A DNA stretch of 64,000 nucleotides. It comes from an uncultured Nitrospina sp. GTDB lineage: Bacteria; Nitrospinota; Nitrospinia; Nitrospinales; VA-1. This document shows positions 8,029 to 45,901 of this stretch, piece after piece (within the stretch, counting starts at the first letter, position 1; every line of letters begins with the position of its first letter). The notes beneath the pieces are model-generated. The model worked only from the letters and a program-made list of their open reading frames with translations. It was not told where the DNA came from and did no database searches. The DNA lies in contig CAJWQP010000001.1 of assembly GCA_913045445.1 (NCBI GenBank), forward strand, positions 7,397 through 71,396, in the 5' to 3' direction. Both the position numbers and the translations under genes were made by a program.

Positions 8029-8076
8029 AGGGCCGGTTCAGTCAGATTCTCCATATTGGGAAAGGTGCGATAGATC

Positions 8077-8460: not shown

Positions 8461-8470
8461 CCGCCGCTGG

Positions 8471-9235
8471 TTAATTTTCCACAACCATTCCATCGTAAGC
8501 CAGTTCTACGCCTTCGGGTAATTCTGCCGAAACCATTTCATGATCGAATTTATGATTGATGTGCGTGAAAATCGTGCGCCTGGGTTTAAGTTCTTCAACG
8601 GTGGCCAGGGCCTGGCTCAATGAAAAGTGAGTGGGGTGTGGGGCGAATCCGAGGGCATTGAGGATCAGGATATCCAAATCCTGCAACTGTTCCTTTGTTT
8701 CGTCGGGGATTCCACTGCAATCGGTTATATAGGCACAGTTATTGAGTTTGTAGCCCAGAATGGTCAATTCCCCATGAATGATATCGAGCGGCGTAACAGC
8801 GACCCCGCCGAGTGTAAACGTTTCACCATTAACAGGATGTAGCTTGAGCTTTGGCAACCCACCACCCATCTGTGTCGTTCCATTGAAGATGTAATCAAAC
8901 TTTGTCCGAATTTCATGAATAGTGCTTTCATTCGCATAGCACGGGATGACCAGATTATTGAAAAAGTTGAAGCTTCTCAATTCATCTATTCCGTGCACAT
9001 GGTCGGCATGATGATGAGTGTATAGAACCTGATTGATCTGGGTGATGTTGTTGGTCAGACACTGTTGCCTGAGGTCGGTCGACGTGTCAATGAGGAGATG
9101 GTTTCCGTTATTGCGGATAAGAATGGAGGAACGCAGGCGTTTGTTCCTGGGATCGGATGATGTGCAGACATCGCAGTCACAACATAGAGAGGGAACACCT
9201 GTGGATGTTCCTGATCCTAGAAAAAGGATATTCAT
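8471..9235 (-). CDS. MBL-fold metallo-hydrolase (PhnP-like)
   Basis: 'FLGSGTSTGVP', a Cys-rich 'CCDCDVC' insert and 'HHHADHVHG'. Confidence 0.75.
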   Translation of the reverse strand: MNILFLGSGTSTGVPSLCCDCDVCTSSDPRNKRLRSSILIRNNGNHLLIDTSTDLRQQCLTNNITQINQVLYTHHHADHVHGIDELRSFNFFNNLVIPCYANESTIHEIRTKFDYIFNGTTQMGGGLPKLKLHPVNGETFTLGGVAVTPLDIIHGELTILGYKLNNCAYITDCSGIPDETKEQLQDLDILILNALGFAPHPTHFSLSQALATVEELKPRRTIFTHINHKFDHEMVSAELPEGVELAYDGMVVEN

Positions 9236-9304
9236 TGATCCTAAAGGGATGCACCGACTCTCTTCAGAGTCGCCGGGGTTCTTGTTGGCTACAGTTCGAC
9301 ATTA

Positions 9305-10198
9305 TCAGTGACTGATATCGCAGAGAGAGTCGTTCTCCTCGCACGGATGAGTCTCGAACTGAATGGTTGAATGTTTAATATTAAACTTATCAGCCAGCAG
9401 ACTTTTGATTTCTTTCAAAGTTTTTTCAAACTGATTTGCCATACTATCATGAATCAGCGCATGAGTGCTCAACGCGTATATATTTGAGCAGATGCACCAA
9501 ATATGAAGTTCGTGAATATCCTAAACTGCCGGGATAGCCTGGAGTTCTTTTTTCACTTCAGATAGTGACACGCCCTTGGGCACCCCTTCCAGCAAAATTT
9601 GAAGCACTTCTGAAAGCACATTCCATGCTCCCCAAAACAACAGTGAGGAGATACCGGTAGCCAACAGCGGGTCCACGATATTCCATCCAGTGAACCAGAT
9701 GATAGCGCCTCCGATCAGAACACCCACAGAAGCGATGAGGTCGCCCAGAACGTGAAAAAAAGCGCTTTTAAGGTTCAGGGTCGTGCGTGTGTGCTGGAAC
9801 GGGTCTTTGAGATAGTAAATCACGATCAGGTTGGCTATCAGTCCAATAGCGGCAACTCCCATGACCATTTCACTGTTGACTGCCGGTGGGCTTTGGTAAC
9901 GCTGGAGAGCCTCGTATAAAATACCGCAGGCCATGAAAATGAACATGAAACCATTGACCACCGAGGCGAGGATCTCCATTCTATGGTAGCCATATGTTTT
10001 TTCACCATTGGATGGCCAGGCGCGCTATTTTAAGAGCGAATCAGCTCAAACTCAGTGACAGGACATCAGTGAGTATATGGGCCGCATCGCTCAACAGAGC
10101 CAGACTGTTAGGATACCTCCCACCACCTCAACACAGAGAATGCAAGAGGTGAGTACAACGGCCAGTTTCAAGCGTTTCTGAACCGTTTCGGAATCCAT
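9305..10198 (-). pseudogene. Cation diffusion facilitator (CzcD-like) pseudogene
   Basis: CDF signatures ('SLALLSDAAHILTDV', 'TYGYHRMEIL', 'HVLGDLIASVGV', 'DIHELHIW') are spread over three frames. There are frameshifts near 10105 and 10015-10025, an in-frame TGA near 10041, and an in-frame TAG at 9521-9523. Confidence 0.8.
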
Positions 10199-11214: not shown

Positions 11215-11970
11215 ATGATTGTTTTATGCAATGACGACGGTTTCAGTGCCGATGGAATCCGCACTATCTATAAAGAGCTATCCAGAATAGCCGAGGTGGT
11301 GATAGTCGCTCCAGAGACCGAGCAGAGCGCAATGGGTCATGCCATCACGTTGACCCAGCCGCTCAAAGTGCGCAAAGTGGTTGAAGGAGGGAAGTTCATG
11401 GGTTACGCCGTCAACGGAACCCCGGCAGACTGTATTAAAATTGCCACCACCGTACTTTTTGACCAGGCCCCTGAAATGGTGGTTTCAGGTGTCAACCTGG
11501 GAGGAAACCTGGGCACCTGCGCCATCTATTCCGGTACCGTATCCGCCGCAACTGAAGCCACGATAGAAGGAATTCCTGCCATAGCTGTATCTCTAAATAC
11601 CTTTGAGAATCCCAATTTTGCATTTGCTGCCGAATTTGGTGCCAGACTCGCAGGGATGGTTTTAGAGAAAGGTTTGCCAGAGGGAGTGGCGCTGAACGTG
11701 AATGTGCCCGCTGTTCCCCGGTCAGAAATCAAGGGAGTGGCTGTTACCCGGCAGGGAAAATCCCGCGTGGTGGAAACTTTCGATAAGCGGGTTGATCCCA
11801 GAAATAATACATACTACTGGATGGCCGGGGAGATGCGCTTTGATGAAGTCGATGATAAGGCAGATTGTTTTCAGGTTTCAAATAACCATATTTCTGTTAC
11901 GCCGATTCATTTTGATCTCACCAGTTATAAAACAATAGAGGAACTGAAAGGCTGGGATTTTTCTCTTTAG
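11215..11970 (+). CDS. surE: 5'/3'-nucleotidase SurE
   Basis: Begins 'MIVLCNDDGFSADGI', the canonical SurE N-terminus. The track ORF opens earlier, at GTG 11146, and reads through the terminator hairpin. Confidence 0.85.
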   Translation: MIVLCNDDGFSADGIRTIYKELSRIAEVVIVAPETEQSAMGHAITLTQPLKVRKVVEGGKFMGYAVNGTPADCIKIATTVLFDQAPEMVVSGVNLGGNLGTCAIYSGTVSAATEATIEGIPAIAVSLNTFENPNFAFAAEFGARLAGMVLEKGLPEGVALNVNVPAVPRSEIKGVAVTRQGKSRVVETFDKRVDPRNNTYYWMAGEMRFDEVDDKADCFQVSNNHISVTPIHFDLTSYKTIEELKGWDFSL

Positions 11971-22854: not shown

Positions 22855-24591
22855 TTAACTGTTAGACAGGAAGCGGTTGGCGAGTTCAATGTCTTCAGCA
22901 CGATGAATTTCCAGCCAGCCTTTGTGGATTTCCAAAAAATGGATCGCGTAACCTCTATCGATCATTTCCTGAATCAGGTCGGTGAGTTTGAATCGGGTGA
23001 TATCGTCCGATTCCTGAAACTTGCCATGGTAGTTTTTTGCGCAGTCTTCATAGGTTTGCAGAAACTGCTCCGCTCCTGTTTTGGTGAATTTTGCGAGACC
23101 TGTGAATTCGTGGGTGGCTGTTTCCGGATTCAGTTTGGAACCTATCTTGGAAATAATGTTTTCGCATACAAAGCTGATTTTTCTACGCGTGGGGTGATGT
23201 TTGTTTTTACTGATAACAAAATCCTGTACCTTGTTTTCTTCTGGCGCATGGTACTGAATAGTATTGTCCACTACAAGAACGATGTCTTCCTTGCAGGTGA
23301 GCAGTTTTGCCAATATGTGATCTTCGAGCAGGATGTCGGAATAGAGCATGATGAATCCGTTTGCCATCTTTTCCTGAGCGCCTATCAGGCTGTGTAGTTC
23401 GGAGCCTTTTTTATAATTTGTGTTTTCACGCAGGGTGACCCCTTCGGCTTTCATCTTGTCGCTAGCGTAGCCCGTGACCACGGTGATGTCTGCCAGGTTA
23501 TTGTTGTTGAGTGTGCTTGTTTGCCAGTTGAGAAGGGTTTTCCCCGCTATTTCCAGCATGGGTTTGGGTTTCCCGTTCAAGGCCGAGCCCAGTGTCGAGT
23601 CTTCTCCGGCGGCAGGAATAATGACGGGGATATTTGTGTTGTTTTCATCGAGCTTGTCTTTTTCTTTAACATCCAGAAATCCGACTGTTCTGAAAATTTC
23701 GCGGACGGGAGAACAAACTGGATCGACTTCGAATGACCGTTGGTTGAGGAGGATGGTGCGCGCAATTTCTTCCATCACCTTGTAGGCGCCTCTTAGCAAG
23801 TGGTTGGCGTATATGATGATGCGAAACCCGGCTGTCCGCAGTTCGTCCTCGGTCATTGTGTTATAGGTTGTCGGCACACACACCATGGGTTTATCAATTT
23901 TCATTTCCTGTATCATTTTCTGGTAGCGTTCAGCGAACTCCATGATTTGGGCTGGATCTTTTTCTTTGGAGTGGATCATCACTCCATCGGCTCCTGCTTC
24001 CAGGTAGGTTCGTGCTCTACTGAGCGCATCATCGACACTTTTCCCGGCGATCAGGCTTTCCAGTCGGGCGATGATCATAAAGTCGTTCGATATCTGAATA
24101 CTTTTCCCTCGGCGGATCTTCTGGGCAAATACTTCAGGCTCCTGAAGGGTTTGCTGGACACCGGCCTCAAGGCTGTTTCGCTTGGGAAAAACTTTGTCTT
24201 CTATGATGACGGCGGAAACTCCTGCTCGCTCAAGTTTGGTCACCATGTATTCAAAACTATTCGCGTCGCCTCCAGTGTCACCATCGACAATCATTGGCTT
24301 ATGAGTGACGGCCAGAATTTCATTGATCGATTGAAGTCTTGAGTCAAAGCTGATCACTTCTATGTCGGGATGTCCTTTGGAGGCGGAGTCGGTAAGACTG
24401 CTTTCCCATATTGCATCGAATTCTCTTTGGACGGATAATTCATCGGCTTGCCCTTCGACCCGTGTGTTATTAGCAATGATACCGCTCAGTCCGTTATGGG
24501 CTTCCAGTACGCGCACTGTTTTCCCGTCATCAAGAATCGCTTTTAATCTGGCGCGACGTGCTTCGGGAAGGATGTTGTTCAATAAGGTCAT
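22855..24591 (-). CDS. pepM: Phosphoenolpyruvate mutase fused to a LicC/PntC-like nucleotidyltransferase
   Basis: The N-terminal ~290 aa belong to the isocitrate-lyase/PEP-mutase superfamily and carry the PepM-diagnostic 'EDKVFPKRNS' (EDKx5NS). The C-terminal ~280 aa begin 'VIIPAAGEDSTLG...KPKPMLEIAGKTLL', a nucleotidyltransferase fold. Confidence 0.85.
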   Translation of the reverse strand: MTLLNNILPEARRARLKAILDDGKTVRVLEAHNGLSGIIANNTRVEGQADELSVQREFDAIWESSLTDSASKGHPDIEVISFDSRLQSINEILAVTHKPMIVDGDTGGDANSFEYMVTKLERAGVSAVIIEDKVFPKRNSLEAGVQQTLQEPEVFAQKIRRGKSIQISNDFMIIARLESLIAGKSVDDALSRARTYLEAGADGVMIHSKEKDPAQIMEFAERYQKMIQEMKIDKPMVCVPTTYNTMTEDELRTAGFRIIIYANHLLRGAYKVMEEIARTILLNQRSFEVDPVCSPVREIFRTVGFLDVKEKDKLDENNTNIPVIIPAAGEDSTLGSALNGKPKPMLEIAGKTLLNWQTSTLNNNNLADITVVTGYASDKMKAEGVTLRENTNYKKGSELHSLIGAQEKMANGFIMLYSDILLEDHILAKLLTCKEDIVLVVDNTIQYHAPEENKVQDFVISKNKHHPTRRKISFVCENIISKIGSKLNPETATHEFTGLAKFTKTGAEQFLQTYEDCAKNYHGKFQESDDITRFKLTDLIQEMIDRGYAIHFLEIHKGWLEIHRAEDIELANRFLSNS

Positions 24592-24916: not shown

Positions 24917-26284
24917 TTAATTAATAATTCGCATTATGTCATTGTAGAAGGCGAACACCATCAGACTGATCAACATGAACAGCCCCACCTGTTGCGCGCG
25001 TTCCCGGTTCATCTCGCTCACAGGCCGTCCTTTGATCATCTCTATCAGGAAAAAGAAAATATGTCCTCCATCGAGAATGGGGATTGGGAGTAGATTGATC
25101 AGCCCCAAGTTGATGCTTAACAGGGCTGTGAGCCTGATGAATTCGCTAAAACCCTGTTCGGCTTGTTCTCCGTAAATTTGAAAGATCAGGATGGGGCCGC
25201 CAATCTGGTCTGCCGGGATTGAACCGAAGATCATTTTCTGGACGCTGATCGCGATCAAAGAGGTCATTTTCCAGGTTTCTTTGATGGATCGCACGATGGA
25301 ACCCAACAGGCCGTATTGCTCGAGCACCATTTTACCGCTCATTCCTACACCGATTTCTCCGATCTTTAATTCCTTACCCTCGCTGTCCCTAACTATTTTG
25401 GGTGTAGTGGTGAGGGGAACCAGAATTTCGGTGCCGTTGCGTCCGATTTTAAAAACCAGTGGCACTCCAGGTTCATCCACAGCGGCAGGTCTAAGATCTG
25501 TCCAGCCGAATATAGGAGTGTTTCCCACGGCCATGATGCGGTCATTGAGTTGAAGTCCAGCTTTTTCGGCGGCACTGCCTTTTTTGATATAGGTGATGGT
25601 ATTTACCAGCGGGGTGATGCCGATGAGACCCACTTGCTGACTGTCACCAAAAGGATCTTTGATCTCCTCCGCTATTGGAGTGATTTTAATATTTACAATT
25701 TGACCAGACTGACGCTCTACCTGAAAATCGAGTTCTTTGCCGGGTGAGTGGTAAACCTTGTTTTGCAACTCGTCCCAGAGCCGGATCGATTTTCCTCCGA
25801 CGGCAATAATCTGATCACCTGTCTGAAGTCCAGCCACCTGGGCGGGTGAATTTTCCTTTACGGTGCCGATGACAGGACTGAGGGCTTCCACCCCGCCCAT
25901 ATAGACAAATATATAAATCGCCAATGCGAACAGAATATTGAAAAGTGGACCGGCAAAAGCTATGAGGAGACGGTGTGACGGCAGAGCGGCTGAAAATGAA
26001 CCTTCTTCATTTGTTTCTTCATCCAGTTCCTCTCCTTTCATTTTGACGTAGCCGCCTAATGGGATGGCGGCAACGATATATTCGGTTTCACCTCGTGTCG
26101 TGCCAAATATTTTTTTTCCGAATCCGATTGAGAATTTTTCAACAACAACACCGCATCTGCGGGCGGCAAGAAAATGGCCCAACTCGTGAACAAAGATGAG
26201 CGCGGCCAGGCCAATCAGAAATGCTAGCATCTTACCGCCAAAGGCGGCTACTGCACTTAAGGATAGTGTGGAGAGTTCAAACAT
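24917..26284 (-). CDS. rseP: RIP metalloprotease RseP (site-2 protease)
   Basis: 'HELGHF' zinc motif, two PDZ domains, and a C-terminal membrane domain with 'NLLPIPILDGG'. Confidence 0.9.
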   Translation of the reverse strand: MFELSTLSLSAVAAFGGKMLAFLIGLAALIFVHELGHFLAARRCGVVVEKFSIGFGKKIFGTTRGETEYIVAAIPLGGYVKMKGEELDEETNEEGSFSAALPSHRLLIAFAGPLFNILFALAIYIFVYMGGVEALSPVIGTVKENSPAQVAGLQTGDQIIAVGGKSIRLWDELQNKVYHSPGKELDFQVERQSGQIVNIKITPIAEEIKDPFGDSQQVGLIGITPLVNTITYIKKGSAAEKAGLQLNDRIMAVGNTPIFGWTDLRPAAVDEPGVPLVFKIGRNGTEILVPLTTTPKIVRDSEGKELKIGEIGVGMSGKMVLEQYGLLGSIVRSIKETWKMTSLIAISVQKMIFGSIPADQIGGPILIFQIYGEQAEQGFSEFIRLTALLSINLGLINLLPIPILDGGHIFFFLIEMIKGRPVSEMNRERAQQVGLFMLISLMVFAFYNDIMRIIN

Positions 26285-26317
26285 GAATAGAGGTCACCGT
26301 TAAAGTTGGGGTCACCG

Positions 26318-26974
26318 TTAGGGGGTGGGCATGAAATCCTGAATTTCTACCCCCGCAGGGACTTGAAAATCAAAAGTACTTTCCGCTATTTCTTCGTTGA
26401 TGCGGATGTCGCTAAAACTGATATCTGTTTTATTACCTAATTTATCATACACGCTGGCCCCGGTAATTTGGTAGTTTTTTTTATTCGTCCGCAGGACCAT
26501 ACGACTTAAATTACTGTCTTCTTCTTTTGGAATGAAGACGACGGTTATCTCATTTTCTCCAGGTATAACCTGGGCAATGTTGAAGGTGTCTGTCAGTTTC
26601 CCTCTTCCTGCCAGAAACAGGGCTGGGGTGTTGGAGGAATATATGTTTTCTACAGGCATCCTTGTGGCCTGGCCTTCTTCGGGCAGGTAGAGCCATAAAG
26701 TTTTTTGATTGCTGATAAGGACCTGAGGGTCTGGAGAGTTGTATGCCCATTTCATTTTTCCGGGTTTTTTGATCTGGACGATTCCTTTGGTGGTTTCTAC
26801 CCGGTTCATCATTTTGACAAAGGCTTTTTGTTCGAAGGTTGCTTTGAATGTCTGGAGGGATTCATAATTTTTCTGGATCGCATCGACAGTGGCTTGTTCG
26901 TTGCTGGTAGACCAGGCCTGATTGGTCCAGCCAAGAAACAATAAACATGTGAGCAATTTGATATGTTTTCTCAA
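26318..26974 (-). CDS. lolA: LolA-like outer-membrane lipoprotein carrier
   Basis: Signal peptide followed by 'FKATFEQKAF...KPGKMKWAYNSPDPQVLISNQKTLWLY', which fits the LolA pattern. Confidence 0.7.
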   Translation of the reverse strand: MRKHIKLLTCLLFLGWTNQAWSTSNEQATVDAIQKNYESLQTFKATFEQKAFVKMMNRVETTKGIVQIKKPGKMKWAYNSPDPQVLISNQKTLWLYLPEEGQATRMPVENIYSSNTPALFLAGRGKLTDTFNIAQVIPGENEITVVFIPKEEDSNLSRMVLRTNKKNYQITGASVYDKLGNKTDISFSDIRINEEIAESTFDFQVPAGVEIQDFMPTP

Positions 26975-27006
26975 TGGGATACCTTGTTAGAATATTTGGT
27001 GTCAGT

Positions 27007-27627
27007 TCAGAGCTTTTTGTGCTTCACGGCCCTGCCGCCCAAAATTATTTTTTTTTCAGCGATGAGCTTGATGGCTTTTGGATAAAGAATATGCTCCTGT
27101 TCAAGTATGCGCTGGGTCAGAGACTCTTCATCGTCATGATCGAAAACGGGAACGGCGGTTTGCATGATTATGGGTCCGCTGTCAATTCCTTCGTCAACGA
27201 AGTGGACAGTGCATCCAGAAAACTTAACCCCATAATCAATGGCTTGTTTTTGGGCATCCAGGCCGGGAAAAGCCGGAAGCAGGGAAGGGTGAATGTTTAC
27301 GATTCTGCTTGCAAAAGTCTGAATGAACTCCCCACCCAGAATGCGCATATAGCCGGCGAGGCAAATAAGGTCAACGGACCTTTCTTTTAATTTATCTATC
27401 ACGGCTTTGTCGAATGCTTTTCTGTCGGGGCTGGCGGCTGGATCGATGAAAACTGTTTCGATTCCATGCTTTTCGGCTCGCTTCAGGGCCGGGGCATCCT
27501 TCACATTGCTGATTACGATTGACAGTTGAATATCTGGTGCGTCCTGCTCAATGCTGTCGATTATAGCTTGTAGATTAGAACCGCGACCGGAAACGAGCAC
27601 AGCTAACTTGAATTTTTTCAATGACAT
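27007..27627 (-). CDS. purN: Phosphoribosylglycinamide formyltransferase
   Basis: 'VLVSGRGSNLQA' and 'NIHPSLLPAFPG'. 206 aa. Confidence 0.93.
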   Translation of the reverse strand: MSLKKFKLAVLVSGRGSNLQAIIDSIEQDAPDIQLSIVISNVKDAPALKRAEKHGIETVFIDPAASPDRKAFDKAVIDKLKERSVDLICLAGYMRILGGEFIQTFASRIVNIHPSLLPAFPGLDAQKQAIDYGVKFSGCTVHFVDEGIDSGPIIMQTAVPVFDHDDEESLTQRILEQEHILYPKAIKLIAEKKIILGGRAVKHKKL

Positions 27628-27652
27628 TCAGGTATTCCGAGAATATTATGTT

Positions 27653-27686
27653 CCCCATGCTTCGCTCTGGGCAGGACTCTTCCTGG
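27653..27686 (-). repeat. Intergenic repeat family 1, copy C (partial, inverted)
   Basis: The reverse complement reads 'CCAGGAAGAGTCCTGCCCAGAGCGAAGCATGGGG' and matches the core of copies A and B. Confidence 0.65.
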
Positions 27687-27886
27687 GTCGAAGCACCAGA
27701 GTATTCATATCATTGAGAGCTTAACATTTCCCGTACAACAGTACAAACTGTTCAAGACAAAGGTCGATAGTGGTTTTTGGAGATTGGCCTGTTTTGGGAA
27801 TGAATCATTTTGTTAAATAAAAATGAAATAATTCGACCCATTAACGAATCTACAAGAGTGTGGGATTTATTCCACCCCTTTGTACG

Positions 27887-27932
27887 TCCGCCTGTCTTGT
27901 GGGTACCTCCCTTGGCAGGCGGATTTTTTTTT
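27887..27932 (+). terminator. Orphan intrinsic terminator (no upstream + strand gene)
   Basis: Stem TCCGCCTG / CAGGCGGA with a 21-nt loop, followed by a run of 9 T. Confidence 0.6.
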
Positions 27933-27943
27933 AAATTCCTCAG

Positions 27944-28238
27944 CTACTGTGATTCAAAATCATCTGGCAAAATAGCTGTTTTTCTACGAAAATGATTGTA
28001 CGGCTGGATAGGGCGCAATCCACCATATTCTTTACGCCAGCGGATCAATGTTTGTTCTGCTATACCCAGCTTTTTTGCTGCCTCCAACTGGGTCAAGCCT
28101 TTGGATTCAAAAACCTCTGCTTCTCGAAGCTTTACAATGATTTGCTCCGGGCTAAATCGCTTCCTACCCATAATCCCCCCCCTTATCAAATAGTTTTTAT
28201 AAGTTTAACACTTGGCATAGATCTAAGGGGTCGGGTCA
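27944..28238 (-). mobile_element. IS3-family insertion sequence remnant (5' end with truncated orfA)
   Basis: From the ATG at 28171, 'MGRKRFSPEQIIVKLREAEV...EQTLIRWRKEYGGL' matches the IS3-family OrfA HTH. Similarity is lost after about aa 55. A candidate terminal repeat starting TGACCCGACCCC (minus strand) ends at 28238. Confidence 0.7.
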
Positions 28239-28254
28239 GTGACAGAAAAAGGCC

Positions 28255-28896
28255 TGCCCGGCGCGGTTTAGGCCTTGCTGGAAAAGGGGCCGACCCGAAT
28301 GTACGCAACAGAAAGGGGTGGACTGCGTTGACCCATGCGGCGAAATATAATCAGGTGGAAAGTGGGCGGGTGCTGATTGCCAGTGGAGCAAAAATTGATT
28401 CAAGAACAAAAATAATGCAACGCCTCTTATTCGATCTCTGCGGAAAAGGGACATGAGTCTTTCACTCGGATGCTGGTTGAAAGTGGTGCGGATGTTAATG
28501 CGAGGAGTAAAAACAGCACAACCCCGTTGATAATTGCGTCTGTCAGAGGTCGTGTTGAAATCATTAGTTTGCTTGTGAAAAAGGGAGCAAAGGTTGATGG
28601 TGTGTTGAATAACGGGTCAACTGCGCTGATGGTTGCCGCAGAGAGGGGCCATTACGAAGCAGTCAAGGCTTTGTTGAAGCATGGGGCTGATCCTGAAATA
28701 ACCAGTCAAAAGGGGTGGACGACACTCATGGTGGCTGTTGCCGGTGGTAACCTCAAGGCCACTCGCCTGATTCTGGATCAGGGGGGGTGACGCTCAAGCC
28801 AAGAGCAAAAGTGGCTGGACCGCTCTGAAAGTCGCCGCTCAAGCCAAGCACCAGAGCATAGTCAATATCCTTCTGCAATCTGGTGTCAAAGATTAA
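28255..28896 (+). pseudogene. Ankyrin-repeat protein pseudogene (5'-truncated, at least 3 frameshifts)
   Basis: About six ANK repeats ('GADPNVRNRKGWTALTHAA', 'GADVNARSKNSTTPLIIAS', 'GAKVDGVLNNGSTALMVAA', 'GADPEITSQKGWTTLMVAV', 'SGWTALKVAA') are spread over three frames. Frame shifts occur near 28410-28440 and at the G7 run 28781-28787. Confidence 0.75.
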
Positions 28897-28974
28897 CAGT
28901 TTTTCTCAGATAAATACAGACTCAGGCGATCCGTTTTTTGTTGAATGATTTTTTGAAGCTGCGCTCGGTAAATA

Positions 28975-31167
28975 TTATTGTTGTTGTGCGCTGATCAGGG
29001 TTTTGAGAAGCCCTATGTTTTGGGTGTGTCCTGATTTATGGGCATGGATGTGTCCGCGAATGGGTCTTCCCAGCAGGTAAAAATCCCCGAGTATGTCTAA
29101 AATTTTATGCCGGGGAAACTCATTTTCAAATCGTAACTGAGTGTTGATGACTTTGCCGTCACCAAGTAATATGAAATTGTCCAGTTTGCCGCCCGAGGCG
29201 AACCCCATTTTTGTTAGTTGCGCGACATCCTGCATGAATCCAAATGTACGTGCGGGAGCAATTTCTTTTTTGAAGCTTTCCTCATCTTTATACTCGAAGG
29301 TGTGGTCCATAACTCCTATCGGAGCAGGATATTCCATGTGGTAGCTCACCTTGAACGTATCGCAAGGTTCAATGCTGATATGAGGTTCTCCATTTTCTTT
29401 GGACCCGAAGGTATAGGTCTTGTCGATGATGAGTTCCTGATAAAATTCATCTTGATCTTCAAACTCCCCGTCCTCTATTAATTCACAGAAGTCCTTTGCC
29501 GAACCATCCATGACCGGAACCTCATCTCCTATTTTTATAAGCAGGTTGGTTATGCGATACATGTGAAGAACAGCCATTATATGTTCTATGGTGGCAACGC
29601 TGGACCTTCCTTTTCGCAGTGAGGTGGAATAATCGGTGGACATGATGTTTTCAATGCGAGCCGGAATGGTTTGTCCGCTGGAGATGTCACCAAAGATAAT
29701 ACCGCTCCCCGGTGGAAGAGGTTGCAGGATCAGGCCTGTTTTGATTCCGAGGTGGAGTCCGCTTCCGCACAACACCATACTCCGCTTGAGAGTTCTTTGA
29801 GGAAAACTGTGGTTATCGTCTTTAGACTCCTTGCTGGGGAATTTGATTCCGTGAGTTTCTATTTTCTCCATGAACATGTCTTTGTCGACTTTCAGGGCCT
29901 TGCTTGTTTTCCTGGCATCCCAGTTGTTCTTTTTCAGGTGATGCAGGAGGTAATCTTTTTCCCAGTGTTGCTCGGCTTCTTTGAGTGACTCGAACTTTTC
30001 GAGGTTCACGGTTTTAAACTGGTCTTCTGCCTGTCTGATTTCTGGAGGAATTTCACTGAGAGAAATATTTTCTCTTGAAGGCGCTGTTGCAATGATGCGA
30101 TCGAGAACTGAGCGAAGCTCTCTAATGTTTCCCGGCCAACTGTAACGGCATAAGGCATCCAGCGCCGCTGAATCTACTTGAGGAGCGGACAGTCCATCCT
30201 TCTGCGCAATTTCTTCAAGATAATCACGGGTCATCATCGGAATATTGGATGAGTTTTCTCGCAAGGGAGGGATATGGATAGTGCTATCTCTGAAAGTTTT
30301 CAGCAGATCGGTGTTGAATTGGCCGTTTTTTGCCAGTTCATGGAGGTCTTTAGAAGATGAGATATACAGGCGCGAGGGTAAAAGTTGTTTTGTTCCCGCT
30401 TGCATGGCATTGAATAATTTTTCCTGCATCACTTTAGTGAGTGCGTCTACATTATCCAGAAATATTATTCGCGATGTGCCAGTGGTTGACTTTGTATTGG
30501 AGTTTTTGTTCTCACTTGCACGGCCTTTTTTTGATCCTGGGAACAAAGAGGATTGGATTTCATGCATTCGTCTTGCGGCGCAATTGATTTTTATGAAGGG
30601 AAGTCTGCTTTGGGGACTCTGATTGTGTATGGCTTGAGCGATGAATTCTTTGCCTGTCCCCGCTTCGCCTAGAAGGAGTATGGGATTGTTAGATTGTGAA
30701 TGGGTTTTGATGGCTTTTTTTATTTCCACCAATGCGGCGAAGCCCATTGGCGCTTCATTGCTATTAGTTAAATGATTATCTGATTTTGCTGAAAAATTCT
30801 TTTTTACTTTGAAGACGCTCTGTACGGACTGGGTCAGGAGGTCCATCGAAAATGGCTTTTCGATGAAGTCATAAGCCCCAAGTTTTGTCGCCTTGACCGC
30901 AGTATCGATAGTGCCGTGCCCGGACATGATAAGCACTTCGATGTTAGGGTGATAGGTTTTAACCGTTTTTAAAACTTCTATTCCATCCATGCCCGGAAGC
31001 CAGATATCAAGCAAAAGCAGGTCGGGTGGATCTGACTGAATTATGTCCAGTGCATCGAGTCCGTCATCGGCCACAGAGACATCGTAGCCTTCATCTGCCA
31101 GAATTCCTCTGAGGGAGCTTACGATGTTTTTTTCATCATCAACAATTAAAATTCGTTCTTGAGGCAA
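28975..31167 (-). CDS. lpxC: Fusion protein: receiver domain + degenerate sigma54-type AAA+ + Fis-like HTH + UDP-3-O-acyl-GlcNAc deacetylase (LpxC)
   Basis: Uninterrupted 730-aa ORF. REC motifs are 'IVDDE', 'LLLLDIW' and 'KPF'. The AAA+ module has 'GEAGTGKE' and 'WPGNIRELRS' but lacks GAFTGA, and Walker B reads 'FLDNVD'. The LpxC part runs from 'QRTLKRSMVLCGSGLHLG' and includes 'ATIEHI', 'ARTFGF', 'RHKILDILGDF' and 'HKSGH'. Confidence 0.85.
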   Translation of the reverse strand: MPQERILIVDDEKNIVSSLRGILADEGYDVSVADDGLDALDIIQSDPPDLLLLDIWLPGMDGIEVLKTVKTYHPNIEVLIMSGHGTIDTAVKATKLGAYDFIEKPFSMDLLTQSVQSVFKVKKNFSAKSDNHLTNSNEAPMGFAALVEIKKAIKTHSQSNNPILLLGEAGTGKEFIAQAIHNQSPQSRLPFIKINCAARRMHEIQSSLFPGSKKGRASENKNSNTKSTTGTSRIIFLDNVDALTKVMQEKLFNAMQAGTKQLLPSRLYISSSKDLHELAKNGQFNTDLLKTFRDSTIHIPPLRENSSNIPMMTRDYLEEIAQKDGLSAPQVDSAALDALCRYSWPGNIRELRSVLDRIIATAPSRENISLSEIPPEIRQAEDQFKTVNLEKFESLKEAEQHWEKDYLLHHLKKNNWDARKTSKALKVDKDMFMEKIETHGIKFPSKESKDDNHSFPQRTLKRSMVLCGSGLHLGIKTGLILQPLPPGSGIIFGDISSGQTIPARIENIMSTDYSTSLRKGRSSVATIEHIMAVLHMYRITNLLIKIGDEVPVMDGSAKDFCELIEDGEFEDQDEFYQELIIDKTYTFGSKENGEPHISIEPCDTFKVSYHMEYPAPIGVMDHTFEYKDEESFKKEIAPARTFGFMQDVAQLTKMGFASGGKLDNFILLGDGKVINTQLRFENEFPRHKILDILGDFYLLGRPIRGHIHAHKSGHTQNIGLLKTLISAQQQ

Positions 31168-31204
31168 TTCTTTCTCCAGATCACGGGGGTTCAGGTATGT
31201 CGCG

Positions 31205-31834
31205 TTATTTTGCGAATTCTAAATAGAAAATACGCTCTCCTGCATTGATAAATTTTTTTTCGTATTTGGTTTTTGGAACGCCTTCTTTTTGCAGAAGGAA
31301 TGTGCCTGATCCGCTTTTATTTTTCAGCGTTGGTTCATTTTCAAAAAATTCCAGAATCTCCAGGGCATAGGATTCAAAATCTGTGGCGATATGAATTTCC
31401 CCGCCCGGCTTTAATTTTTCGGACAGAGTTTTGATGAAGGCTGGTTTAATAAGTCTGCGTTTATGATGCCTTTTTTTAGGCCATGGATCAGGAAAGTTTA
31501 TATAAACCCGACTCAGTTCCTGATCATTAAACAAGAGAGGTGTTTTCTCTTTCGCATCGCCATATACGATACGGGTATTATTGACCTGATACTTGTCTAT
31601 CCGGGAGATAACTTTGCGGATGCCTTTATGATAGAAATCCATGCCGATAAAATTTTCATCGGGTTCGCGGATTCCCATTTCTATCAGAAAATTTCCAACG
31701 CCAAACCCGATCTCCAGATTCAGGGGATTGCTGTTGCCAAAAACTTCTTCCCAGTCGGGCCTTGAATCGATATCGAGAAAGTTAACATTGCTCTCAGCTA
31801 TTTCGTCAAATGAGATAAGATTTTTAAAGGACAT
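31205..31834 (-). CDS. trmB: tRNA (guanine46-N7)-methyltransferase
   Basis: 209 aa with 'LEIGFGVGNFL' and 'FPDPWPKKRHHKRR'. Confidence 0.9.
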   Translation of the reverse strand: MSFKNLISFDEIAESNVNFLDIDSRPDWEEVFGNSNPLNLEIGFGVGNFLIEMGIREPDENFIGMDFYHKGIRKVISRIDKYQVNNTRIVYGDAKEKTPLLFNDQELSRVYINFPDPWPKKRHHKRRLIKPAFIKTLSEKLKPGGEIHIATDFESYALEILEFFENEPTLKNKSGSGTFLLQKEGVPKTKYEKKFINAGERIFYLEFAK

Positions 31835-31842
31835 GGAGATGG

Positions 31843-32328
31843 TTACTCTTCATCCTCTTCTGAATCTTCGTGGATGGTCGTCACACGAATAACTTCATAT
31901 TCCACCTTTTGCTCTGGCAGAGAAATAATGATTTCATCCCCTACCTGTTTTCCCATGAGAGCTCTTCCAATAGGCGAAGCGGCTGAGATTTTTCCAGCAT
32001 CGGGATCAACATCTTCGGGGAAGACCAGTCGATATTTTTTTTCCTTCCCTGTGTCAAGGTCATTCAGGAACAGAGTGCTGCCTAGTCCAGAACGGTCTTT
32101 TGGAATCCTTTCTAAATCCAGCGAGGTGACATCGCTTATTCTTTTTTGCAGTAGTGATATTCTCGCCTGAAGAAATGTTTGCCTTTCTTTTGCCGCTTTG
32201 TATTCGGCGTTTTCACTCAGGTCACCATGTTCCCTGGCAATTTTTAACGCCTCTGGAATATCGACCTGCAATTCCTTTTGGGAATCCGCAAGTTGCTTGT
32301 CGAGTTTTTTCAGGATGGTCTGCTTCAT
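31843..32328 (-). CDS. greA: Transcription elongation factor GreA
   Basis: Contains 'DLSENAEYKAAKERQ' and 'ISAASPIGRALMGKQVGD'. I prefer the ATG at 32328 after GGAGAG; the track ORF opens at TTG 32343. Confidence 0.93.
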   Translation of the reverse strand: MKQTILKKLDKQLADSQKELQVDIPEALKIAREHGDLSENAEYKAAKERQTFLQARISLLQKRISDVTSLDLERIPKDRSGLGSTLFLNDLDTGKEKKYRLVFPEDVDPDAGKISAASPIGRALMGKQVGDEIIISLPEQKVEYEVIRVTTIHEDSEEDEE

Positions 32329-32745
32329 GCAGGCTCTCTCCAATCAAATAATTCTGTTACTGGGATGCGATGAATCTCACCACATGTTTCAAGGATATTC
32401 TAGAAGACCCTTTTGTCTTCCGCAAGAATAAGATTAGATGTTTTCAATTTCAAGTGTATGTTCAGGTTTAAGTACTTTTTCACTTAAATATTTAACTCAT
32501 CAATTGTTCCGCTACCCCAAAATATTAATTTTATGGGATTGTCCGGGTTGGTTTTCATGCCAGGGTTTTTCTTAGCGAAGTGCTTCTGCGGTTATTTCGA
32601 ATTATTTTAAAATTAGTTTGGTTTATGGGGCAATAGCTCTTTATTTGGATAGATATACAGGGTAACCCCATTCTAAATAAATGGCTTAGTGTCTAATTCG
32701 ATTATATTGTTATGGCTCCGACCATATTCCCAGATAACTCAACTG

Positions 32746-32891: not shown

Positions 32892-33134
32892 GTGCGGAAA
32901 ATTTTTCTGTTTGGTGAGAGGAAGCACTTGAGAGACAAACTGTTAACTTTATTGGAACAAAAGGGTGGTCTTCCGCCGTTGCCCGATGTTTTGTTAAAAT
33001 TAGAAAACCATATTAACGATCCCAATAGTGACCTGGAAAGTGTTGCTGGTTTAATTCAAACCGACCCGGTTATGCAGGGGAGGTTGATTAAGTTGGCCAA
33101 TAGTGTGTTTTCTGCTTCGTTAAAAATGGAATGA
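32892..33134 (+). pseudogene. HDOD-domain protein, N-terminal fragment only
   Basis: 'LPPLPDVLLKLENHINDPNSDLESVAGLIQTDPVMQGRLIKLANSVF' matches the start of an HDOD domain. The ORF stops after 80 aa and no continuation exists in any frame. Confidence 0.55.
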
Positions 33135-42827: not shown

Positions 42828-44351
42828 ATGAATTGTAAAGTTGTCAAGGTAGTATTTTCCTGGTTTCTGGTGATGGGTATATGTTTTCCTCTTTCCATGG
42901 AAACGGGGGATGTTTCCGGATCATTGACAGGACAGGCTTGGGCCTTGAGTTCTGAATCGATGCCGCTGACGAGTAACATATTCGTTGATATAGCAAAGCA
43001 ACAGAATCCGGCAGTAGTCAATGTCAGTATGAGCTCCAAGGCAAAAAAGGCCAGCCCGCGTCGACAGACTCCTCCGGCTCCTCCGGGATTGCCAAGAGAT
43101 CCGAGAGCACCGGGAGGGCCAGGGCAGAAAGATCCATTTCGTGATTTCTACGACAAGTTTTTTGACAAGCGACCTGATAATCAGCCAAAGCGTGGAACGG
43201 GTTCAGGGTTCATCATTGATCCGGAAGGATATATCTTGACCAACGTCCACGTTGTTGACGGGGCCGAAGAGATTCTTGTCAACCTGGAAGATGAAAATGA
43301 AGATGAAAAGGAATACAGCGCAACGTTGATCGGTTCCGACTCTAAAACCGACATTGCCTTGATCAAGATCACCAGAGAAAATGGAGACAACACACCATTC
43401 CCATACTTGCGTATGGGGGACTCCGATAAACTGGAAGTTGGCGAATGGGTGATGGCAATTGGAAATCCATTTGGATTAAGCCATACCGTAACCGTGGGCG
43501 TGGTCAGCGCGAAAGACAGAAGCATTGGTGCCGGACCCTATGACGAATTCATCCAGACAGATGCCTCCATCAACCCCGGTAACAGCGGTGGTCCGTTGAT
43601 CAATATCAAGGGGCAGGTTATTGGAATGAATACAGCAATCATATCGGGCAATACCGGCGGAAATGTTGGAATTGGTTTTGCCATTCCGATCAATGTAGCC
43701 AAGTCTATTTTGACGGACCTGCGAGAAAAAGGAAAAGTCACACGCGGGTGGCTGGGCGTGATGATTCAAAAAGTCACACCAGAACTGGCTAAATCATTTT
43801 CATTGAAGGATAACAAGGGGGCATTGGTGGGAGACGTTATTCCCAACGGACCAGCCTCCAAGGCAGGAATCAAGCGTGGGGATGTGATTGTTGAATTCAA
43901 CGGGCATTACGTATCTGATATGGAAGAACTGCCTAAAATCGTAGCAAACACAACGCCGGATTCTAATGTCGATGTGGAAGTGATTCGGGGCGGGAAATCG
44001 TTGACCCTGAATGTTCATATCGAGGTTCTTAAAGATGGTGAGGAAAAAGTGGCGCAAGCTCAGGTGGCAGATCCGCTGGGCATGCAGGCGCAGGACATAA
44101 CTCCCGAACTGGCACAGAGCCTGGGTTTGGATACCGAGGAAGGTGTGTTGGTGTCTGATGTGACAGCGGGGCAACCCGCCGCCGATGCCGGTATCAGGCG
44201 CGGTGATGTGATTTCAGAAATTGATCGCAAACCGATTGCGAATACGGCAGATTATAACCGTGCGATTGGAAATATAAAGGCAGGTCGCACGGTACTGTTC
44301 CTTATTCGCAGAGGGGGGACGACCATATACATAGCCGTTAAGGTGAAATAG
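42828..44351 (+). CDS. Do/DegP/DegQ-family periplasmic serine endoprotease (2 PDZ)
   Basis: Signal peptide, catalytic 'TNVHVV', 'DIALIK' and 'GNSGGPL', and two PDZ domains. Confidence 0.9.
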   Translation: MNCKVVKVVFSWFLVMGICFPLSMETGDVSGSLTGQAWALSSESMPLTSNIFVDIAKQQNPAVVNVSMSSKAKKASPRRQTPPAPPGLPRDPRAPGGPGQKDPFRDFYDKFFDKRPDNQPKRGTGSGFIIDPEGYILTNVHVVDGAEEILVNLEDENEDEKEYSATLIGSDSKTDIALIKITRENGDNTPFPYLRMGDSDKLEVGEWVMAIGNPFGLSHTVTVGVVSAKDRSIGAGPYDEFIQTDASINPGNSGGPLINIKGQVIGMNTAIISGNTGGNVGIGFAIPINVAKSILTDLREKGKVTRGWLGVMIQKVTPELAKSFSLKDNKGALVGDVIPNGPASKAGIKRGDVIVEFNGHYVSDMEELPKIVANTTPDSNVDVEVIRGGKSLTLNVHIEVLKDGEEKVAQAQVADPLGMQAQDITPELAQSLGLDTEEGVLVSDVTAGQPAADAGIRRGDVISEIDRKPIANTADYNRAIGNIKAGRTVLFLIRRGGTTIYIAVKVK

Positions 44352-44482
44352 CCACTGGCCGTGGAGGCAATATGTCGAAGCGTTAGCTGGCAAACGCTAA
44401 CGATTTGGCACGAAATAGGGTTTTGCTTTGTCCTCGTTCCAATGCTCCAGCGTGGGAACGAAGAGGAAAGTTATCAATTTTC

Positions 44483-44524
44483 AGACGGCAGGCCGAGAGG
44501 CTTGCCGTCTTTCGTTTTCTTCTT
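44483..44524 (+). terminator. Intrinsic terminator between the two HtrA paralogues
   Basis: A 12-bp stem AGACGGCAGGCC / GGCTTGCCGTCT with a GAGA loop, followed by a T-rich tract. Confidence 0.8.
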
Positions 44525-44527
44525 CAT

Positions 44528-45901
44528 ATGAACCATTCCCGATTTATCATAACGATACTCGCCCTCATCACCTTTGCCTGTGGAGCTGTTCCCCTGTGGG
44601 CAGAGGGCAGTGACCGTCGCACTCCTGTAGTCAAGGTGGTGGAAATGGCGGGACCGGCGGTAGTCAATATCAACACTGAAGAGGTTGTACCCGCAATGCG
44701 AAACCCGTTCAGGGATTCGCGCAATCCTTTCTTTGACCAGTTTTTCCAGCAACTGTTTCCGCGTTTGAATAATAACCGCCGAAGTCTGGGATCCGGAGTG
44801 ATTATTCATCCAGATGGATACATCCTCACTAACGAACATGTTGTTTCCAGAGCGACCCGCATTAAAGTTACACTCATAGATAAACGGGAGTTTGATGCTC
44901 ATCTTGTGGGAGCCGATATCAAATCGGATCTTGCAGTTATTAAAATAGACAGTGAAGAACATCTGCCTCACGTTGCTTTGGGGCGGTCAGATGACCTGAT
45001 GACCGGAGAAACAGTCATAGCCATCGGGAATCCTTTCGGTCTGCGACACACGGTGACGACTGGAATTATCAGCGCATTGCACCGGAGTATTCAGGGTGAC
45101 AAAAAAAGGGTTTACCGGGACTTTATTCAGTTGGATGCCTCGATCAATCCGGGTAACAGTGGAGGTCCTCTCCTCAATATTAATGGTTCACTGATTGGGA
45201 TCAACACAGCTATTTTTCAGAAAGCCGAGGGGATTGGATTTGCCATTCCCATTGATAAGGCCAAGCGCATTGTCGATGACCTTATCCGTTACGGCAAGGT
45301 GCGGCGCGGGTGGCTGGGCGTATCTGTGCAGGACATGTCTAAAGAAATGCTCCGTTTCTTTCATCTCGACCGGGTTACAGGCGTGGTCGTTGTGCGGGTT
45401 ATGAAAGGAAGCCCGGGTGCCAAAGCCGGACTGAAACAGGGAGATGTTATTTTGTCCCTGGAGAATAATGAGGTCAGTGATAAATCTGATTACTCCGAAC
45501 GAGTTTCCACCTACCCTGTGGGAAACACCATACGATTAAAAATATTACGAGATGGGGCAAAGCATTCAGTGTCCTTGAAAGTTTCGTTTCTGCCTGTCAA
45601 GCTGGTCGAAGAGTATACAAAAACCTGGTTGGGATTCAATGTGTCGATGATTGAAAAATCATCGTTGCGAAGATATCGCCTGGCAACTGATCAGGGAGTG
45701 GTCGTGACGGGGGTGATACCGGGCAGTGCCGGAGGAAAAATCGGGATACAGCCGGGAGATGTTATCCGGCAGGTCAATCAGGCGAGAATTAGAAATGAAC
45801 GGGATTTTAAAGCCGCTATGGTAGAGGCGGCGGGGCGCGATAGTGTGCTTCTTCTGGTGCAAAGGGGGCAGAACGGATATTACGTAACGCTTGAACCCTG
45901 A
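44528..45901 (+). CDS. Second HtrA/DegQ-family serine protease (2 PDZ)
   Basis: The ATG at 44528 gives a signal peptide 'MNHSRFIITILALITFACGAVPLWA'. Contains 'TNEHVV', 'DLAVIK' and 'GNSGGPL'. Confidence 0.9.
   Translation: MNHSRFIITILALITFACGAVPLWAEGSDRRTPVVKVVEMAGPAVVNINTEEVVPAMRNPFRDSRNPFFDQFFQQLFPRLNNNRRSLGSGVIIHPDGYILTNEHVVSRATRIKVTLIDKREFDAHLVGADIKSDLAVIKIDSEEHLPHVALGRSDDLMTGETVIAIGNPFGLRHTVTTGIISALHRSIQGDKKRVYRDFIQLDASINPGNSGGPLLNINGSLIGINTAIFQKAEGIGFAIPIDKAKRIVDDLIRYGKVRRGWLGVSVQDMSKEMLRFFHLDRVTGVVVVRVMKGSPGAKAGLKQGDVILSLENNEVSDKSDYSERVSTYPVGNTIRLKILRDGAKHSVSLKVSFLPVKLVEEYTKTWLGFNVSMIEKSSLRRYRLATDQGVVVTGVIPGSAGGKIGIQPGDVIRQVNQARIRNERDFKAAMVEAAGRDSVLLLVQRGQNGYYVTLEP

Follow-up and report, generated by a model that had tools for sequence, protein, structure and literature searches.

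The enzyme LpxC, a major target for antibiotics, carries out a step that is tightly regulated and commits the cell to lipid A synthesis. Here we describe a gene from an uncultured Nitrospina sp., located in a 64,000-nucleotide stretch of contig CAJWQP010000001.1 (the whole of which we call the window), whose product combines a complete LpxC with a response regulator of the NtrX type and which we refer to as ntrX::lpxC. In a 2025 Journal of Biological Chemistry review of lipid A regulation, LpxC is described as being controlled through proteolysis (by FtsH/LapB in enterobacteria and possibly, in some alpha-proteobacteria, by Lon), through its localisation, for which Neisseria uses a LapB homologue, and through indirect effects on transcription; the two-component system NtrYX is credited there with a pleiotropic transcriptional influence only, and the terms fusion, fused and response regulator are absent from the text (PMC12444477).

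Links between two-component regulators and lpxC have nevertheless been reported at the level of transcription. In R. sphaeroides, deletion of ntrYX increases lpxC mRNA 8.8-fold and raises lipopolysaccharide (LPS) levels, with no NtrX site seen at lpxC (PMC7240162). In D. vulgaris, the DNA-binding response regulator DVU2934 has as its target an lpxC gene with a predicted sigma54 promoter, whilst in S. fumaroxidans lpxC adjoins the orthologous regulator operon (PMC3333781). In the beta-proteobacteria, loss of the AAA+ domain from NtrX has been documented, together with a DUF4390 partner protein (PlrP) whose gene lies 5′ of ntrY (PMC13001219). A protein in which a receiver or an entire NtrX is joined to LpxC was not found described in the full-text literature, a search whose scope left out most subscription journals, so that an earlier mention is possible; the original prediction for this locus, made from the letters of the DNA, had likewise known of no description of the architecture.

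The ntrX::lpxC gene occupies positions 28975..31167 on the minus strand of the window, with a TTG start codon at 31165-31167 and a stop codon at 28975-28977, and in the open reading frame (ORF) listing forms a single uninterrupted frame of 730 amino acids (aa), as had been stated. The original prediction had divided the protein into an intact receiver, an NtrC-type AAA+ module disabled as a sigma54 activator, a Fis-type helix-turn-helix (HTH) and a full-length, apparently active LpxC, and all of the strings it quoted in support are present in the translation (IVDDE, LLLLDIWLPGMDG, MSGHG, KPF, GEAGTGKE, SSLFPGSKKGRASENKNSNTKSTTG, FLDNVD, SSSK, WPGNIRELRS, QRTLKRSMVLCGSGLHLG, ATIEHI, ARTFGF, RHKILDILGDF and HKSGH). 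Most of this description is borne out by profile searches, with Response_reg, Sigma54_activat and LpxC models all matching the protein, whilst the HTH_8 model does not.

The LpxC domain (aa 457-725; 28993..29799, minus strand) matches positions 1-267 of the 268 in Pfam PF03331 (E 9.5e-79, 265 bits) and scores above the cut-off of the NCBIfam lpxC model TIGR00325 (222 bits vs 187.25). In E. coli numbering, the zinc ligands of LpxC are H79, H238 and D242 and the catalytic residues E78, H265, T191, K239 and D246. A residue alignment shows that the equivalents of E78/H79, T191/F192, H238/K239/D242/D246 and H265 are all identical to those of P. aeruginosa LpxC; among them, E528/H529 are encoded at 29581-29586, H687-D695 at 29083-29109 and H714 at 29026-29028 (all minus strand). 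Nine catalytic and zinc-binding positions are conserved over 302 fusions with one exception, LpxC is near-invariant in our alignment A1, and Foldseek comparison of the C-terminal part of an AlphaFold2 (AF2) model with solved LpxC structures gives TM-scores of 0.72-0.80. On this evidence the fused LpxC looks catalytically intact.

The receiver (REC; aa 6-115; 30823..31152, minus strand) is equally well preserved. It matches Pfam PF00072 (Response_reg; E 3.8e-32, 111 bits vs a cut-off of 30.2) and possesses all of the residues expected for phosphorylation, namely the acidic pocket D10/D11, the phospho-acceptor D54 (31006-31008), S82 and K104, each of which is ~100% conserved in every architecture class of the 302 fusions. 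In addition, the receiver carries what we term the NtrX signature: W56, G83-H84 and E103, corresponding to a tryptophan two residues after the phospho-acceptor and to the motifs S-G-H-G and E-K-P. Among the ntrY-adjacent receivers of 69 loci from many phyla, W56 is present in 67/69 and G83, H84 and E103 in 69/69 each, whereas the corresponding residues of NtrC paralogues are I/V, A, Q and P.

The wider comparison points in the same direction. The best NCBIfam model for the N-terminal half of the protein is NtrX (NF051870) at 272 bits, a score that does not reach the equivalog cut-off of 600, and the top sequence match in the PDB is full-length Brucella abortus NtrX (5m7n; aa 6-440, E 5e-58). 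The leading Foldseek matches to the AF2 model are likewise NtrX structures in apo, ATP and ADP forms (5m7p, 5m7n and 5m7o), followed by NtrC1, NtrC4 and LuxO. Because the best matches in both sequence and structure are to Brucella NtrX, and because the full ntrY-linked receiver signature is present, we identify the N-terminal half, from sequence and model comparison, as an NtrX orthologue. Neither this identity nor NtrY as the probable partner had been recognised in the original prediction.

Between receiver and LpxC lies a degenerate NtrC/NtrX-type AAA+ module with its lid (aa 146-383; 30019..30732, minus strand), defined by Pfam matches to Sigma54_activat (PF00158; aa 146-293, E 2.5e-23, 83 bits vs a cut-off of 20.2) and AAA_lid_14 (aa 303-383, E 1.7e-17) and by a census of motifs. 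The Walker A motif GEAGTGKE (aa 167-174; 30646..30669) is intact, with G167, G170, G172 and K173 present in 110/110 full-length fusions. Where the GAFTGA L1 loop should be there is instead a hypervariable stretch rich in K, S and N (aa 208-232; 30472..30546) that is gapped and variable in alignment A1. The Walker B motif has degenerated to IFLDNVD (aa 235-241; 30445..30465): at the position of the glutamate, the 110 fusions have N in 91, G in 12 and E in 0, and at that of the aspartate S in 65 and D in 38, as against D in 78/84 and E in 77/84 unfused controls. The sensor I asparagine has become serine or threonine, both arginine-finger positions (R285 and R291) are lost and sensor II is lysine in 74 fusions and arginine in 25, whereas the unfused controls retain D-E, A-T-N and both arginines. 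Counted over a larger set, a GAFTGA-like motif is found in 0/144 fusions vs 43/59 unfused relatives and an hhhDE Walker B in 0/144 vs 49/59. Brucella NtrX likewise lacks GAFTGA, yet retains the Walker B ‘DE’ (‘YLDEV’). With an intact P-loop, and with the Walker B glutamate, the arginine fingers and GAFTGA all gone, the module is predicted to be a pseudo-ATPase that may still bind nucleotide; the earlier statement that it is unlikely to act as a sigma54 activator thus holds across the family, and remodelling of the sigma54 holoenzyme would be beyond it.

The segment that follows (aa 393-445; 29833..29991, minus strand) is a Fis/NtrX-type three-helix remnant that aligns to the HTH of Brucella NtrX and is modelled by AF2 as a three-helix bundle (helices 395-413, 418-425 and 429-438). 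A family HMM (hidden Markov model) made from it matches canonical NtrC-family HTHs with E values of 1e-9 to 1e-14, and to this extent the description of the segment as a Fis-type HTH stands; Pfam HTH_8, on the other hand, matches neither the window protein nor the isolated segment, even at E<=10. The remnant is possibly a dimerisation element or a weak DNA binder. It has been cleanly deleted in a class of proteins of ~665 aa from the window’s own clade.

The domains are joined by tethers of differing character. The REC–AAA+ linker (aa 116-145; 30733..30822, minus strand) consists of an extension of helix alpha5, modelled as helix from 108 to 128, followed by a disordered stretch, and its mean pairwise identity is 0.26. 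A short flexible linker (aa 446-456; 29800..29832, minus strand) leads into LpxC strand 1; across the full-length fusions it is 7-14 aa long, and the sequence at the junction (...QRTLKRS...) is conserved in the fusion alignment. In the AF2 model the domains themselves fold, with the predicted local distance difference test score (pLDDT) dropping below 50 at 126-141, 213-230, 380-394 and 445-452. Mean pairwise identity in alignment A1 is 0.80 for REC, 0.49 for AAA+, 0.26 for the GAFTGA region and 0.56 for the HTH-like segment.

How widespread is this arrangement? When 5.8 billion proteins were searched, >120 full-length fusions of 660-752 aa and 57-100% identity were recovered, all with the same set of Pfam domains; Tara, JGI, ENA, Logan and NCBI are the sources of these fusions. 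Their source names are Nitrospinaceae, Nitrospina sp., Ca. Nitromaritima, Ca. Nitrohelix vancouverensis and Nitrospinota. Tara/JGI data contain an identical protein of 730 aa, and proteins of 99% identity come from many assemblies, whilst the window protein is 99% identical to a protein from a Nitrospinaceae metagenome-assembled genome (MAG) and 80% identical to that of Ca. Nitromaritima. Several of the fusions are encoded on contigs of 3.31, 3.25 and 2.86 Mb, and the closed genome of Ca. Nitrohelix vancouverensis (CP048620.1) carries the fusion in the gene order greA-trmB-fusion, as in the window. More divergent fusions were found at 38-48% identity, and in all the frame is uninterrupted in >300 proteins from independent assemblies and sources (37-100% identity). 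The architecture is not rare, with hundreds of database entries named simply ‘LpxC’ and one JGI entry named ‘NtrX’; although widespread, it has apparently escaped description.

We also searched 1.84 billion cluster representatives exhaustively with HMMER and, with our own domain HMMs, sorted the 430 sequences collected by architecture, which revealed a series of reduced forms. The full REC-AAA-HTH-LpxC order is seen in 110 of these (704-752 aa) and REC-AAA-LpxC, in some cases with the AAA+ partly deleted, in 34 (650-712 aa). A REC-HTH-LpxC order is found in 19 proteins of 491-510 aa with the source names Nitrospinota and Ca. Entotheonellia, and simple REC-LpxC proteins of up to 483 aa account for a further 149, a figure that includes truncated entries (139 are at least 400 aa long); the latter bear the source names Ca. 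Binatia, ‘Deltaproteobacteria’ and, in one case, Verrucomicrobiae. The fused LpxCs of all classes are 50-63% identical to that of the window, in comparison with 34-41% for stand-alone LpxCs, those encoded beside ntrYX included, and 39% for the P. aeruginosa enzyme, and would thus form a distinct, always-fused sub-clade. That the fused enzymes are closer to one another than to stand-alone LpxCs argues for a single fusion event followed by domain loss. Because sister lineages have deleted the AAA+, the HTH or both and yet retain receiver and LpxC, it is these two that would appear to make up the conserved functional unit, the AAA+ and HTH being dispensable. The fusion is fixed throughout the Nitrospinota, a phylum of marine nitrite oxidisers of global importance, and is common in Binatia-type soil bacteria.

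Three entries that resembled close stand-alone relatives of the fused LpxC were set aside. P0175, the sole such close match on a long contig, is in reality a frameshifted REC-LpxC: its contig (L007, 5000-9200) is an error-rich long-read assembly with many frameshifts in which ruvB and ntrY are broken and the REC is split between two frames, the result mimicking a stand-alone LpxC of 292 aa. Counts of architectures drawn from assemblies of this kind need to be treated with caution. The remaining two, P0164 and P0248, lie on contigs of ~900 bp and are probably truncated. No other LpxC is encoded in the window or in any of the relatives’ flanks that were examined (±10 kb around known proteins).

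Further clues to function come from the location of the fusion gene in relatives. In six loci (L002, L003, L005, L006, L008 and L009), a gene for an NtrY-type kinase (NtrY_N-HAMP-PAS-HisKA-HATPase_c) lies 10-71 nt 5′ of the fusion. Two of these, L002 and L003, encode REC-LpxC proteins 20-40 nt downstream of ntrY; L005 is a Nitrospinota REC-HTH-LpxC locus in which a DUF4390 gene precedes ntrY; L006, from a deep-branching Nitrospinota MAG, has a full 727-aa fusion, with a weak HTH_8 match, after ntrY; and L008 and L009 have full-length fusions (identity to the window protein, 48 and 44%) preceded by DUF4390-ntrY. The three ntrY-adjacent full fusions (L006, L008 and L009) span 37-48% identity to the window protein, and at another locus (L010) our domain HMMs place a full REC-AAA-HTH-LpxC ~60 nt after an ntrY match. 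On the 3′ side, the L006 order purM-purN-rhomboid-lolA-rseP-ispG-proS-rimP is the window’s own downstream synteny; purN-lolA-rseP follows the fusion in L004 as well as L006, and purN-lolA follows it in L005. Because the fusion directly follows (DUF4390-)ntrY, with shared downstream synteny, it occupies the ntrX slot of the ntrYX operon in the deeper Nitrospinota and Binatia-type relatives.

The position of ntrY is taken in the window by greA (31843-32343) and trmB (31205-31834), which lie immediately 5′ of the fusion on the same strand (31205..32343, minus). Only 37 nt separate the trmB stop codon from the fusion gene, and the three genes are probably co-transcribed. The same pair, not ntrY, precedes the fusion in every relative of at least 57% identity, the HTH-less class included (L001, L004, L090, L091 and L092), so that in the window’s clade the receiver is a genomic orphan.

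Clues to the origin of the fusion come from genomes in which NtrX and LpxC are separate. In a genome-collection scan with an NtrY alignment, at least 80 ntrY loci from named genomes were recovered among the matches listed, and in at least ten of these (10/80 among those listed) a stand-alone lpxC gene lies ~1 kb 5′ of ntrY on the same strand; no Nitrospinota genome was among the matches listed. These ten loci (L011, L013, L014, L020, L032, L033, L034, L036, L042 and L044, the module spanning ~3900-9600 in each) come from Ca. Acidoferrum (Acidobacteriota), Rokubacteria, Syntrophales, Desulfobacula (Desulfobacterota), ‘Deltaproteobacteria’ and Thermoanaerobaculia, and in 7/10 a DUF4390 gene is found between lpxC and ntrY. 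The NtrX proteins they encode are GAFTGA-positive in 8/10 cases, with a Walker B reading LFLDEI, a recognisable HTH_8 and a Sigma54_activat score of ~246 bits vs 83 for the window protein. Moreover, 7/10 loci have a sigma54-type -24/-12 element 38-75 nt 5′ of the start of the LpxC domain, the criterion being GG-N10-GC and no fewer than 9/12 matches to TGGCACGNNNNTTGCA. The background rate is 0.082 per 460 nt, from which our own binomial arithmetic gives a probability of ~1e-9. No -24/-12 element was found 5′ of the fused genes, that of the window included.

These observations suggest that NtrYX-dependent, sigma54-driven transcription of lpxC is widespread outside the Proteobacteria, and they agree with experiment on DVU2934 (PMC3333781). 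Because other phyla place an lpxC gene with a sigma54 promoter just 5′ of DUF4390-ntrY and a GAFTGA-positive ntrX, a regulator and its own target seem here to have been joined in one protein. The most economical scenario would have four steps: an lpxC operon activated by sigma54 and NtrX; the attachment of lpxC at the 3′ end of ntrX; erosion of the sigma54 machinery, some lineages also losing the HTH and/or AAA+; and, in the window’s clade, separation from ntrY. Such an evolutionary path, from a transcription activator to a fusion with its target gene’s product and on to the stepwise loss of the transcription machinery, would be rare.

Taken together, these results make it reasonably probable, in our judgement, that the gene encodes an NtrX::LpxC protein in which phosphorylation of Asp54 controls LpxC post-translationally. 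An NtrY-type membrane kinase, paired in relatives with a periplasmic DUF4390/PlrP-like protein, would phosphorylate Asp54, and the phospho-receiver would then alter LpxC output by relieving or imposing an intramolecular or dimer-dependent block, much as in CheB. The flux into lipid A would in this way be tuned directly rather than via transcription, with the pseudo-AAA+ and the helical remnant serving as a nucleotide-binding or dimerising spacer that is helpful yet dispensable. By continuity with the ancestral system, a sigma54-activated lpxC, phosphorylation probably activates LpxC rather than represses it. We are more tentative about a broader proposition, to which we give slightly less than even chances: that NtrY/NtrX is at root a sensor of LPS homeostasis, and that the phospho-receiver directly switches LpxC catalysis in Nitrospinota, Binatia, Entotheonellia and their allies, with the pseudo-AAA+ as a spacer.

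Two-component control of LpxC had already been put forward in the original prediction and is strongly backed by the presence of ntrY directly 5′ of the fusion in six independent loci. The accompanying idea, that phosphorylation drives oligomerisation through the AAA+ module, cannot be the core of the mechanism, since there are sister lineages that lack the AAA+, the HTH or both and keep REC-linker-LpxC. The original interpretation was partly supported and right in substance, and is recast here as NtrX::LpxC with NtrY as partner and the REC-to-LpxC connection as its core.

Several points weigh against control of LpxC by Asp54 phosphorylation. No kinase gene adjoins the fusion in the window or in relatives of at least 57% identity, and in this clade the kinase, if still present, would have to act in trans. 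The window’s only histidine kinase (5209-6198) was considered as a specific partner and rejected, as an OmpR-type regulator of its own accompanies it next to genes for phosphate transport. The predicted template modelling score (pTM) of the AF2 model of the window protein is only 0.42, giving no confident arrangement of the domains relative to one another. Finally, the helical remnant is moderately conserved where kept (0.56 identity), which leaves room for a role in DNA binding.

The last of these points bears on an alternative that we consider unlikely, namely that the protein is bifunctional without allosteric coupling, an NtrX-like, sigma70-type DNA-binding regulator being merely co-expressed in cis with a constitutive LpxC. 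Alpha-proteobacterial NtrX proteins without GAFTGA do still regulate transcription, the window protein keeps its helical segment, the pattern K-x-x-L/F-x-x-K-I-x-x-H-x-I within the family recalls a Fis-type recognition helix and the L006 fusion gives its weak HTH_8 match. Against these stand the failure of Pfam HTH_8 to match the window protein and the deletion of the segment from both the ~665-aa class and the REC-LpxC proteins. Brucella NtrX, moreover, retains a Walker B ‘DE’ that the fusions never have, and the receiver stays in every reduced form, which makes REC-to-LpxC the conserved unit.

We assign a similarly low probability to the possibility that phosphorylation sets the amount of LpxC, the NtrX part acting as a phospho-switchable degron or adaptor-binding module in place of the FtsH/LapB system. 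The window protein ends 16 aa past the His265 equivalent, which leaves no room for a C-terminal FtsH degron like that of E. coli LpxC, and its long, disordered, lysine-rich segments (213-230 and 126-141) could serve as protease entry sites. One would expect a degron to be conserved, however, which these hypervariable loops are not, and the known cases of receiver-controlled proteolysis work via separate adaptors and not by fusion in cis. Proteolytic control of LpxC does have precedents, in E. coli and possibly, through Lon, in some alpha-proteobacteria (PMC12444477).

It is less likely still that the N-terminal half is a signalling fossil in the window’s clade, an inert appendage on a constitutive LpxC since its parting from ntrY. 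The missing kinase gene in all relatives of at least 57% identity and the visible decay of the AAA+ module would fit this idea, but in exactly this clade few parts of the protein are as strongly conserved as the receiver (0.80 mean identity), with D10, D11, D54, S82 and K104 essentially invariant, which is unexpected for a non-functional domain. An artefact, whereby the loss of a stop codon, a frameshift or mis-assembly turned neighbouring ntrX and lpxC genes into one, can be ruled out for practical purposes, since frameshifted long-read contigs do exist in the family (L007) but split the fusion rather than create it, whilst the same frame is present in >300 independent proteins and in closed CP048620.1 with the junction sequence conserved.

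For a REC-LpxC relative, AF2 gives a pLDDT of 83.8 and a pTM of 0.69, with a disordered linker of 25 aa, and we claim no interface. A separate observation concerns the stretch just past ARTFGF, which is modelled with lower confidence than the rest of LpxC both in the window protein (aa 641-680; 29128-29247, minus strand) and in P0321 (aa ~341-360). We take this to be the Insert II/acyl-tunnel region of LpxC. Either a shallow alignment or a mobile element may lie behind the lower confidence, and this would be a natural place for regulation.

The surroundings of the gene in the window can be described briefly. A Shine–Dalgarno sequence, GGAGA (31173..31177, minus strand), is read directly from the sequence 5 nt 5′ of the TTG start, whilst scans for promoters and terminators around the gene gave the same counts as in shuffled sequence. 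On the 3′ side are purN (27007-27627), lolA (26318-26974) and rseP (24917-26284), all on the minus strand (24917..27627). A 1.35-kb insert (27630-28975) separates the fusion gene from purN and contains an 81-aa IS3-like transposase HTH fragment (27944-28189, minus strand) and, on the opposite strand, a split ankyrin-repeat gene (ORFs 27992-28456 and 28470-28790, plus strand). In L004 purN comes straight after the fusion and in L092 ankyrin genes are found at this spot too, so that the fusion–purN gap looks like a variable insertion site. In one Nitrospinaceae-type relative (L090) a stand-alone 192-aa receiver-domain gene (11354-11932, minus strand) and an unannotated 464-aa ORF lie between fusion and purN.

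Beyond rseP, a 578-aa protein combining phosphoenolpyruvate (PEP) mutase with a MobA-like nucleotidyltransferase is encoded at 22855-24591 (minus strand), suggesting that phosphonate is made as a head-group or for the cell surface. This gene is kept a few genes 3′ of ntrX::lpxC, past purN-lolA-rseP, in L004, L090 and L092, and its neighbourhood is rich in envelope genes (lolA, rseP). On the other side, the first ~61 codons of an HDOD-domain gene remain at 32928-33110 (plus strand), 62% identical to a 285-aa HDOD protein encoded beside greA in L004; nothing more of it is left in the interval from greA to the LPG_synthase_TM gene. Further away, two tandem genes (42828-45901, plus strand) encode DegP/HtrA-type serine proteases, each with Trypsin_2 and two PDZ domains, that are periplasmic quality-control paralogues. 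Finally, a PhoU-like gene (DUF47) and a PHO4-family phosphate transporter gene (953-2934, plus strand) lie near those for a 329-aa histidine kinase (HisKA and HATPase_c) and an OmpR-type regulator (5209-6911, plus strand); together these probably form a phosphate-responsive two-component unit, and the kinase is not an NtrY.

Were the proposed control of LpxC by its own receiver to prove correct, receiver-LpxC would represent direct two-component control of the enzyme, distinct from the mechanisms covered by the 2025 review, and NtrYX, a system that is still poorly understood, would gain a specific, concrete output. The fusion ties together the up-regulation of lpxC in ntrYX mutants and the control of lpxC by DVU2934 in Desulfovibrio and, if the proposal is true, would serve as a Rosetta stone for the fact that few genes are as deregulated as lpxC in alpha-proteobacterial ntrYX mutants. 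The protein is small, soluble-looking and assayable.

How, then, does ntrX::lpxC compare with known systems? With NtrX of the NtrY/NtrX system it shares the REC-AAA+-HTH order, the receiver signature, the lack of GAFTGA (as in Brucella NtrX) and a link to the envelope and lpxC; the placement right after ntrY is shared by the deeper fusion relatives, not by the window. It departs from NtrX in its C-terminal LpxC, in the loss of the Walker B glutamate, arginine fingers and sensor I, and in an HTH that Pfam misses. With the stand-alone LpxCs of E. coli, P. aeruginosa and Aquifex aeolicus it has in common a full-length domain, the catalytic and zinc-binding residues and the fold, the difference being the ~455 aa of regulator that are N-terminal to it. 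D. vulgaris DVU2934, which we liken to the fusion by function, and the lpxC-DUF4390-ntrY-ntrX modules similarly tie a two-component regulator to lpxC; in the modules, however, control would be transcriptional and exerted in trans by a GAFTGA-positive, ATPase-competent regulator, whereas in the fusion the regulator is joined to the enzyme and the sigma54 machinery has been lost.

Other likenesses are to proteins in which the receiver has an enzyme as its output. The methylesterase CheB, the GGDEF proteins PleD and WspR and the HD-GYP protein RpfG all resemble REC-LpxC in consisting of receiver, flexible linker and enzyme, with catalysis expected to be switched by phosphorylation, although the LpxC output is unrelated to theirs and the window protein has a vestigial AAA+/HTH in between. 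Beta-proteobacterial NtrX/PlrR, a REC-HTH protein without AAA+, parallels the REC-HTH-LpxC class without an attached enzyme, and the beta-proteobacterial location of the DUF4390 gene 5′ of ntrY is that seen in L005, L008 and L009. The only other known LpxC fusion, to our knowledge, is LpxC-FabZ (NCBIfam PRK13188), from which it is clear that a covalent partner can be tolerated by LpxC. No FabZ domain is present in the window protein, which matches PRK13188 at 5-300 of 464 only (198 bits vs a cut-off of 465). Both are thus LpxC proteins with a covalent partner, but in LpxC-FabZ that partner is C-terminal and metabolic, whilst in ntrX::lpxC it is N-terminal and of the signalling kind.

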